Origin: Escherichia coli
Lineage (GTDB): Bacteria > Pseudomonadota > Gammaproteobacteria > Enterobacterales > Enterobacteriaceae
Length of the DNA stretch: 30,752 nt
Direction: 5' to 3' (one strand)
NCBI RefSeq assembly: GCF_003334315.1
Contig: NZ_QOWR01000055.1
In this document: positions 6,548 to 6,623 of the stretch, piece by piece
Layout: each line of letters starts with the position of its first letter
Numbering within the stretch: the stretch's first letter is position 1
Notes under the pieces: model-generated
Seen by the model: only the letters and a program-made list of their open reading frames with translations
Told to the model about the DNA's origin: nothing
Database searches by the model: none
Translations under genes and position numbers: made by a program

Positions 6548-6623
6548 GCCGGAGGCGACGCTGCGCGTCTTGTCCGGCCTACGGGGATCCAGGTCGGATA
6601 AGGCGTTTACGCCGCATCCGACA
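6548..6623. repeat. REP-type (repetitive extragenic palindromic) elements in the gabT-gabP intergenic region
   Basis: GC-rich imperfect palindromes gccggaggcgacgctgcgcgtcttgtccggcctac and cggataaggcgtttacgccgcatccg, typical of enterobacterial REP/BIME sequences; lie between convergent stop of gabT and start of gabP. Confidence 0.6.

Follow-up and report, generated by a model that had tools for sequence, protein, structure and literature searches.

REP repeats between gabT and gabP of Escherichia coli K-12: a small, decayed BIME-2-type element with a plausible, non-essential role in the operon mRNA

Introduction

Few bacterial repeats have been known for as long as the REP and BIME elements, whose copies in Escherichia coli K-12 have been catalogued. 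Several functions have been published for them (PMC6061677, PMC3184786, PMC2817692): REP hairpins withstand 3'-to-5' exonucleases and are found at the steady-state 3' ends of Rho-terminated transcripts (PMC6061677), and BIMEs are capable of attenuating transcription and of binding gyrase, IHF and Pol I (PMC2817692, PMC3184786), the BIME-2 class being reported as a strong gyrase binder (PMC2817692). Among the closest described systems, the REPs of malE-malF and hisJ-hisQ act as mRNA decay barriers (Newbury et al. 1987 and Stern et al. 1988, as cited in PMC6061677 and PMC3184786). A further effect depends on position: a REP located less than 16 nt past a stop codon lowers translation of the upstream gene, with nrdAB as an example (Liang, Rudd and Deutscher 2015, as summarised in PMC12306157).

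Like the REPs of malE-malF and hisJ-hisQ, those located between gabT and gabP lie inside an operon, with a gene for a soluble protein upstream and a gene for a membrane transporter downstream, and they are predicted to form stable hairpins without a U-tract; the gab cluster differs in being polymorphic within the species. It also shares the arrangement of the stop-proximal REPs, as its first copy begins 11 nt past the gabT stop codon. In the E. coli literature searched, neither gabP nor gabT was found together with REP, and gabT did not come up as a target of stop-proximal REPs, the work of Liang and colleagues being covered there through its summary in PMC12306157.

We analysed this locus in a stretch of 30,752 nt of E. 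coli DNA (hereafter the window, to which all positions refer unless a locus is named). REP sequences between gabT and gabP had reportedly been noted already in a 1993 description of the gab cluster. An original prediction, made from the letters of the window, had placed GC-rich palindromes of the REP/BIME type at 6548-6623 and assigned them a role as mRNA stabiliser or partial terminator, which is a reasonable analogy with published REP functions (see above). We regard the biology of this REP cluster as already known, and its function as plausible and non-essential.

Results and discussion

The gabT-gabP spacer and its place in the operon

Over positions 6400-6900, the window has 100% identity to E. 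coli K-12 MG1655 and to many other E. coli genomes; it is E. coli K-12 DNA. In the RefSeq annotation of the corresponding K-12 region, the gene order is glaH(csiD)-lhgD-gabD-gabT-gabP-glaR(csiR). On the plus strand, gabT (ORF 5255..6535) ends with the TAG stop codon at 6533..6535, the RefSeq K-12 gabT ending at the equivalent base, and the true start codon of gabP is the ATG at 6773..6775, as given by the RefSeq K-12 annotation and by a species alignment. The spacer between both genes (6536-6772) is 237 nt long and contains three REP copies, which we designate REP1, REP2 and REP3. No sigma-70-like promoter was predicted within 6536-6772, leaving gabP without a predicted promoter of its own. 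The operon has been described as csiD-ygaF-gabDTP, with promoters at csiD and gabD only (PMC5217608), which places the REPs within the transcribed gabDTP mRNA. The RefSeq K-12 annotation carries no REP features at this position; as it carries none even for the obvious cluster after proX, the missing annotation is uninformative.

Anatomy of the REP cluster

The spacer was compared with two E. coli K-12 REP consensuses taken from Nunvar et al. (PMC2817692, Table 1), and the identities of the three copies to these published sequences ranged from 77 to 86%. REP1 occupies 6547..6582 on the minus strand (GTAGGCCGGACAAGACGCGCAGCGTCGCCTCCGGCA), agrees with consensus 2 at 31/36 positions and is Z2-like. 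REP2, located on the plus strand at 6589..6623 (CCAGGTCGGATAAGGCGTTTACGCCGCATCCGACA), agrees with consensus 1 at 30/35 positions and is Y-like. Both are convergent, their GTAG ends facing each other across a linker of six bases, GGGGAT (6583..6588). Downstream of REP2, an A+U-rich stretch of 28 nt (6624..6651, plus strand, ATCTGTACGTGAACAGGAAGAAATCTAT) leads to REP3 (6652..6684, plus strand, GTTGGCCGGGTAAGGCGGAGCCGCTCTCCGGCA), a degenerate copy with a gapped match of 27/32 to the Y-like consensus; REP3 has the same orientation as REP2, and the alternation of the array is broken at this copy. The names Y and Z2 are used here in the sense of the Bachellier and Gilson nomenclature.

The GC-rich palindromes anticipated immediately after gabT are indeed present: two imperfect palindromes, with arms at 6545-6561/6565-6581 and 6593-6606/6609-6622, lie in the interval 6548-6623, which has 67% G+C compared with 51% in the window. 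The predicted coordinates hold for these two palindromes and fail at the edges of the cluster, as the first REP starts at 6547 and the third (6652-6684) lies outside the interval. Neither REP3 nor the distance of 11 nt between the gabT stop codon and REP1 (6535 to 6547, with the first paired base at +12) had been pointed out in that prediction.

The foot tetranucleotide GTAG is intact in REP1, on the minus strand (complement of 6579-6582), and is mutated in two of the three copies, being CCAG in REP2 and GTTG in REP3. REP2 and REP3, with the GTAG foot lost, appear to be decayed members of the REP family. Because cleavage by TnpAREP in vitro is abolished by any single mutation of GTAG (PMC3479197), the K-12 array can be read as decaying; judged by sequence, only REP1 would keep the GTAG required of a TnpAREP (RAYT) substrate, and REP2 would keep a near-exact copy of the co-crystal hairpin, with 29 of 32 bases identical to the oligonucleotide crystallised with TnpAREP (a 32-mer, PMC3479197).

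REP identity and class

To place these copies among their relatives, the whole window was scanned with a 17-nt REP tail consensus, allowing up to three mismatches. Seven matches were observed against 0.1 expected, three of them in the gab spacer and four after proX. All seven align with the co-crystal REP and split into two classes, Y and Z2, REP1 aligning with the Z2-type copies after proX. A provisional full-length REP consensus gave no match at three mismatches, and shorter half-site patterns did match. Beyond the window, every one of 5426 complete E. coli genomes has 37 or more places that match the 82-nt pair formed by REP1 and REP2, and 5428 records have at least 40 matches. The comparison with REP consensus families thus found relatives elsewhere in the genome, clearly the opposite of an element without structure or other copies. 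Given the matches of 31/36, 30/35 and 27/32 together with this high dispersed copy number, the REP/BIME classification is well founded, and the palindromes of the spacer are almost certainly E. coli REP/BIME repeats.

Within this family, the cluster is a small, decayed element of the BIME-2 type, formed by the convergent Z2-like REP1 and Y-like REP2, to which the older, degenerate REP3 is added. It shares with BIME-2-type REPs the extragenic GC-rich palindromes of 33-36 nt, the convergent Z2/Y arrangement, the short linkers, the variable number of tandem units (one to three among Escherichia, as described below) and the many relatives, in the hundreds, per genome. It differs from them in that K-12 has a single Z2+Y unit, REP3 does not alternate and two of the three copies are devoid of GTAG. 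An assignment to the IHF-binding BIME-1/RIP class was tried and rejected: the IHF consensus WATCAANNNNTTR has no match with up to one mismatch in 6536-6772, the nearest match being located at 6400-6412, inside gabT. We also considered the Rfam family naRNA4 (RF02564), a REP-derived (REP325) family of nucleoid-associated RNAs whose model recognises a Y-linker-Z2 pair of REPs. REP2 matches half of this model (40.1 bits, E 9e-6, a partial match below the gathering threshold of 59.5), and the gab cluster differs from it in having no Z2 partner downstream of REP2.

Predicted structure of the spacer

Folded as RNA, the spacer is predicted to be stably structured. The fold of the whole spacer (about 237 nt) reaches -99.8 kcal/mol, with a z-score of -3.9 and an energy equalled in none of 200 shuffles. 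Among the individual hairpins, REP2 stands out from shuffled sequences (-18.8 kcal/mol on the plus strand, z -5.3; -19.2 on the minus strand), followed by REP1 (-20.3 kcal/mol on the plus strand, z -2.1; -19.5 on the minus strand, z -3.1), and REP3 alone is no more stable than shuffled sequence (-15.4 kcal/mol on the plus strand, z -1.4; -12.8 on the minus strand). REP1 and REP2 can also pair with each other in a long duplex of -41.7 kcal/mol (z -3.8), and the minus strand of the cluster folds equally well. In the full-spacer fold, long-range pairing of REP1 with REP3 competes with the local hairpins, and because of these competing pairings the structure adopted in vivo is uncertain. The A+U-rich stretch at 6624..6651 forms only a 4-bp hairpin in the same fold; we infer it, and only infer it, to be a candidate endonuclease entry site.

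An intrinsic terminator was rejected, since a search of 6536-6772 gave no hairpin with a U-tract directly behind it; after REP3 the sequence reads AAAAAG, with no run of T. The effects on termination that the spacer could have are consequently restricted to Rho-dependent or attenuation-type ones.

Distribution and evolution of the cluster

A degenerate pattern for the C-terminal region of GabT retrieved 36 loci from a collection of species-representative genomes. In 27 of these, gabP follows gabT, with spacers ranging from 112 to 416 nt, those carrying Escherichia REP alleles (loci L005, L034, L010 and L036) measuring 211-416 nt. The spacer of E. whittamii has the architecture of K-12, with one Z2+Y unit; E. 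albertii (L005) has two units and Escherichia sp. E1V33 (L034) three, the extra Y copies in these last two retaining GTAG, and in one divergent lineage of E. coli the Y is truncated. At least one E. coli genome, that of H90, appears to have two units as well, on the basis of a contiguous 259-nt match over both. Query coverage proved useless for counting such two-unit genomes within E. coli, as overlapping BLAST pieces lying on a single unit reach 99%. Throughout the Escherichia REP alleles, REP1 lies 10-11 nt past the end of gabT in every case, and the substitutions in REP1 between species fall mostly in the apical loop, with two copies having one inner-stem mismatch each.

Outside Escherichia, intact REP3-class copies (GTAGGCCGGATAAGGCGGAGCCGCCATCCGGCA) occupy the corresponding place, directly before TCAATAACAAT, in many Citrobacter species, from which it follows that REP3 is old and decaying in E. 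coli. A REP-class scan found no REPs in the spacers of Hafnia, Pluralibacter, Shimwellia and three Citrobacter genomes. Two contigs labelled Pseudocitrobacter, from P. faecalis DSM 27453 (L007) and P. vendiensis (L037), have spacers near-identical to the two E. coli alleles, with 100% identity over the first 120 residues of GabP; this likeness could reflect recent transfer, contamination or misassignment.

Within E. coli itself, the REP allele is carried by 4056 of 5426 genomes. In 1302 of the 5426, about a quarter and including O111 strains, the REP cluster is absent and a different repeat takes its place. In this alternative allele, a segment of 244 nt replaces the whole REP block (positions 437-680 of locus L002, from strain PC-NDM34; also loci L018 and L007). 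Within this segment lies a dispersed repeat of about 134 nt, found at a median of 18 places per genome, which has terminal inverted repeats of 16 nt (L002 522-537/640-655, arms GGGAGAGGG/CCCTCTCCC) and ends in a terminator-like hairpin with a T-run (L002 626-651). This repeat is presumably of a kind resembling the 'box C' enterobacterial repeats. The backbone of the alternative allele, CGTTGCTAA(C/G)GGAATGAT(G/A)ACGATGCAGTAAA, is common to the REP-less genera, and for this reason the allele looks closer to the ancestral spacer than the REP allele does. A conserved stretch, CGTTGCTAACGGAATGATGACGATGCAGTAAA, was also observed in the REP-less spacers of Citrobacter (L014, L030 and L039), Pluralibacter (L008) and Shimwellia (L011) and in L002; it looks like ancestral spacer that the REPs may have displaced.

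The spacer is therefore a hot spot for small repeats, and the REP cluster within it is evolutionarily unstable. The cluster is also dispensable and its role cannot be essential, as 1302 of 5426 E. coli genomes and several related genera lack the element. The one-unit, two-unit and REP-less alleles of E. coli constitute a natural experiment on the effect of the REPs on the downstream cistron.

These polymorphism data fit well with the strongest rival to a functional reading, according to which the REPs are neutral, selfish passengers, spread by RAYT/TnpAREP and by slippage or unequal recombination, with no selected or measurable effect on gab expression. Such an origin would account for the coexistence of 4056 REP-allele and 1302 other-repeat genomes in a single species, for the change in unit number from one (K-12, E. 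whittamii) to two (E. albertii) and three (E1V33) with a truncated Y elsewhere, for the REP-less spacers of several genera and for the decay of the array seen in its mutated K-12 feet, CCAG and GTTG, two of three. It sits less easily with the transcribed hairpins themselves, which are stable, lie 11 nt from a stop codon and would be hard for ribosomes and exonucleases to ignore, and with the effects that characterised REPs in the same position have (PMC12306157, PMC6061677); the stop distance of 10-11 nt kept in all Escherichia REP alleles also speaks against neutrality, although common descent could explain it. Taking both sides into account, we consider complete neutrality possible rather than probable.

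Predicted effect on the gab operon

The reading that we favour, and that is probably correct, is that the REP cluster modestly modulates expression of the operon, both as a decay barrier after gabT and as a damper on termination of gabT translation. According to this model, the hairpins (about -15 to -20 kcal/mol each), or alternatively the REP1:REP2 duplex of -41.7 kcal/mol, would block 3'-to-5' exonucleases on the operon mRNA after an endonucleolytic cleavage or a Rho-dependent termination event further downstream of the REPs. The gabDT segment would then outlive the gabP segment, and expression would be skewed to the enzymes and away from the permease. At the same time REP1, 11 nt past the stop codon, should hinder the ribosome terminating there and would cause a modest drop in GabT output. 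The element would have arisen and persisted as a selfish or slippage-prone repeat, its regulatory effect being modest and not required for the operon. That the decay-barrier component is real and measurable at the gab locus is a more specific claim, which we hold as nearly an even call, leaning towards doubt.

The translational component could also be the principal effect. In that case, REP1 would stall the ribosome terminating at gabT, leading to tmRNA-dependent rescue and less GabT. The 11 nt between the TAG (6533-6535) and REP1 (6547), with pairing from +12, are below the threshold of 16 nt given in PMC12306157, and all Escherichia REP alleles keep the distance at 10-11 nt. Weighing against it, no mention of gabT as a target was found in the literature searched, and on the plus strand the REP1 hairpin exceeds its shuffles only by a modest margin (z -2.1). 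We consider this reading rather doubtful as a full account, and it is compatible with the decay-barrier model, which it does not exclude.

A partial transcription terminator or attenuator, lowering read-through into gabP, was also part of the original prediction. Rho-dependent attenuation by BIMEs has been reported (Espeli et al. 2001, as cited in PMC2817692 and PMC6061677), and the 237-nt untranslated spacer would offer a window for Rho. The spacer has no hairpin with a U-tract anywhere, however, and thus does not contain an intrinsic terminator; gabP is without a predicted promoter of its own, so that strong termination would silence the permease; and the 3'-end mapping and SMRT-Cappable-seq tables searched list no gabT or gabP 3' ends or transcription units. 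Little weight can be given to this last absence, as under the usual growth conditions expression of the operon is poor. An attenuator is on these grounds unlikely.

Strong gyrase sites are generally multi-unit arrays. A DNA-level role, as a gyrase-binding or nucleoid-organising site with incidental RNA effects, is very improbable: the Z2+Y composition and variable tandem units match BIME-2, a class of strong gyrase binders (PMC2817692), and both strands fold equally well, but in K-12 the element consists of only one unit, and a quarter of strains do without it. Rho-dependent attenuation and a gyrase-related role are thus possible but less likely than the combination of decay barrier and damper, which remains our preferred reading.

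The gabP start codon and leader

The over-long gabP ORF starting at 6710 and several antisense ORFs had been explained as artefacts of the GC-rich repeat, and this explanation for the most part does not stand. The GTG at 6710 lies in a hairpin of the gabP leader, 26 nt past REP3, and the 252-aa antisense ORF at 5927-6685 is for about 80% of its length antisense to the gabT coding sequence. The listed ORF 6710..8173 is 21 codons too long because ORF calling takes the first GTG after a stop. The ATG and the N-terminus MGQ are aligned in all 27 species loci with gabP downstream, and the lengths of the leaders differ by non-multiples of three; these two observations, together with the RefSeq annotation, place the gabP start at 6773. 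For annotation, the value of the analysis lies in the three REPs of the spacer, in the gabP start at 6773 and in the recognition that the spacer-crossing ORFs are mechanical products of ORF calling.

The leader of gabP (6696-6772, plus strand) lies outside the REP cluster and contains two predicted hairpins (6707..6764), which were derived from an alignment and RNAalifold. The alignment comprised 13 sequences from Escherichia, Citrobacter, Pluralibacter, Hafnia and Shimwellia, together with a contig labelled Pseudocitrobacter. Conservation of the 67-79 nt that precede gabP extends from Escherichia to Hafnia, across five genera. Hairpin 1 spans 6707-6737 and has an invariant loop, GCGGGAA. Hairpin 2 (6738-6764) has an invariant sequence; in it, CUCUC (6738-6742) pairs with the GAGAG (6760-6764) of the Shine-Dalgarno region, and there is an inner stem (6745-6749/6753-6757). 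Of the alignment cells assigned to stems, 98% are paired; a shift of the partners by one to three columns lowers this share to 29-58%. Compensatory changes were observed at three pairs, all of them in hairpin 1, and the covariation score was reached in none of 500 shuffles, a control known to be lenient for related sequences. The fold of the single sequence is unremarkable (z -0.45), and the case for the leader is accordingly one of conservation and covariation only.

The possibility that the leader is another dispersed repeat was ruled out, since it is single-copy, each of 5397 E. coli genomes having it at one place. It has no match to an Rfam family, and gabP was not found in the CsrA and Hfq literature searched for a link to the leader. 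Many Citrobacter have the leader, but in C. koseri, C. amalonaticus, C. portucalensis and a Klebsiella MAG it is precisely absent, and CAATAACAATAAC abuts the Shine-Dalgarno sequence. We tentatively suggest that the leader may be an undescribed cis-regulatory RNA switch, responding to a ligand, a protein or an sRNA and setting GabP independently of gabDT, a proposal for which the odds are rather against than in favour. If it were true, the REPs would only define the upstream boundary of the mRNA. As a source of new regulatory biology, the conserved leader is in any case more promising than the REPs.

Other features of the window

A second REP cluster is located directly after proX, at 20645-20834 (tail-pattern matches at 20647-20830). 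It has four REPs that alternate as Y, Z2, Y, Z2 and form two units of 100 nt, which score 59.6 and 71.4 bits with the Rfam naRNA4 model, both above the gathering threshold of 59.5. The sRNA MicA, a known feature of K-12, was identified at 27425-27496 (83.9 bits), and the minus strand of 30274-30752 has a tRNA-Arg cluster with weak, sub-threshold matches to RtT-like spacers, which are likewise known K-12 features.
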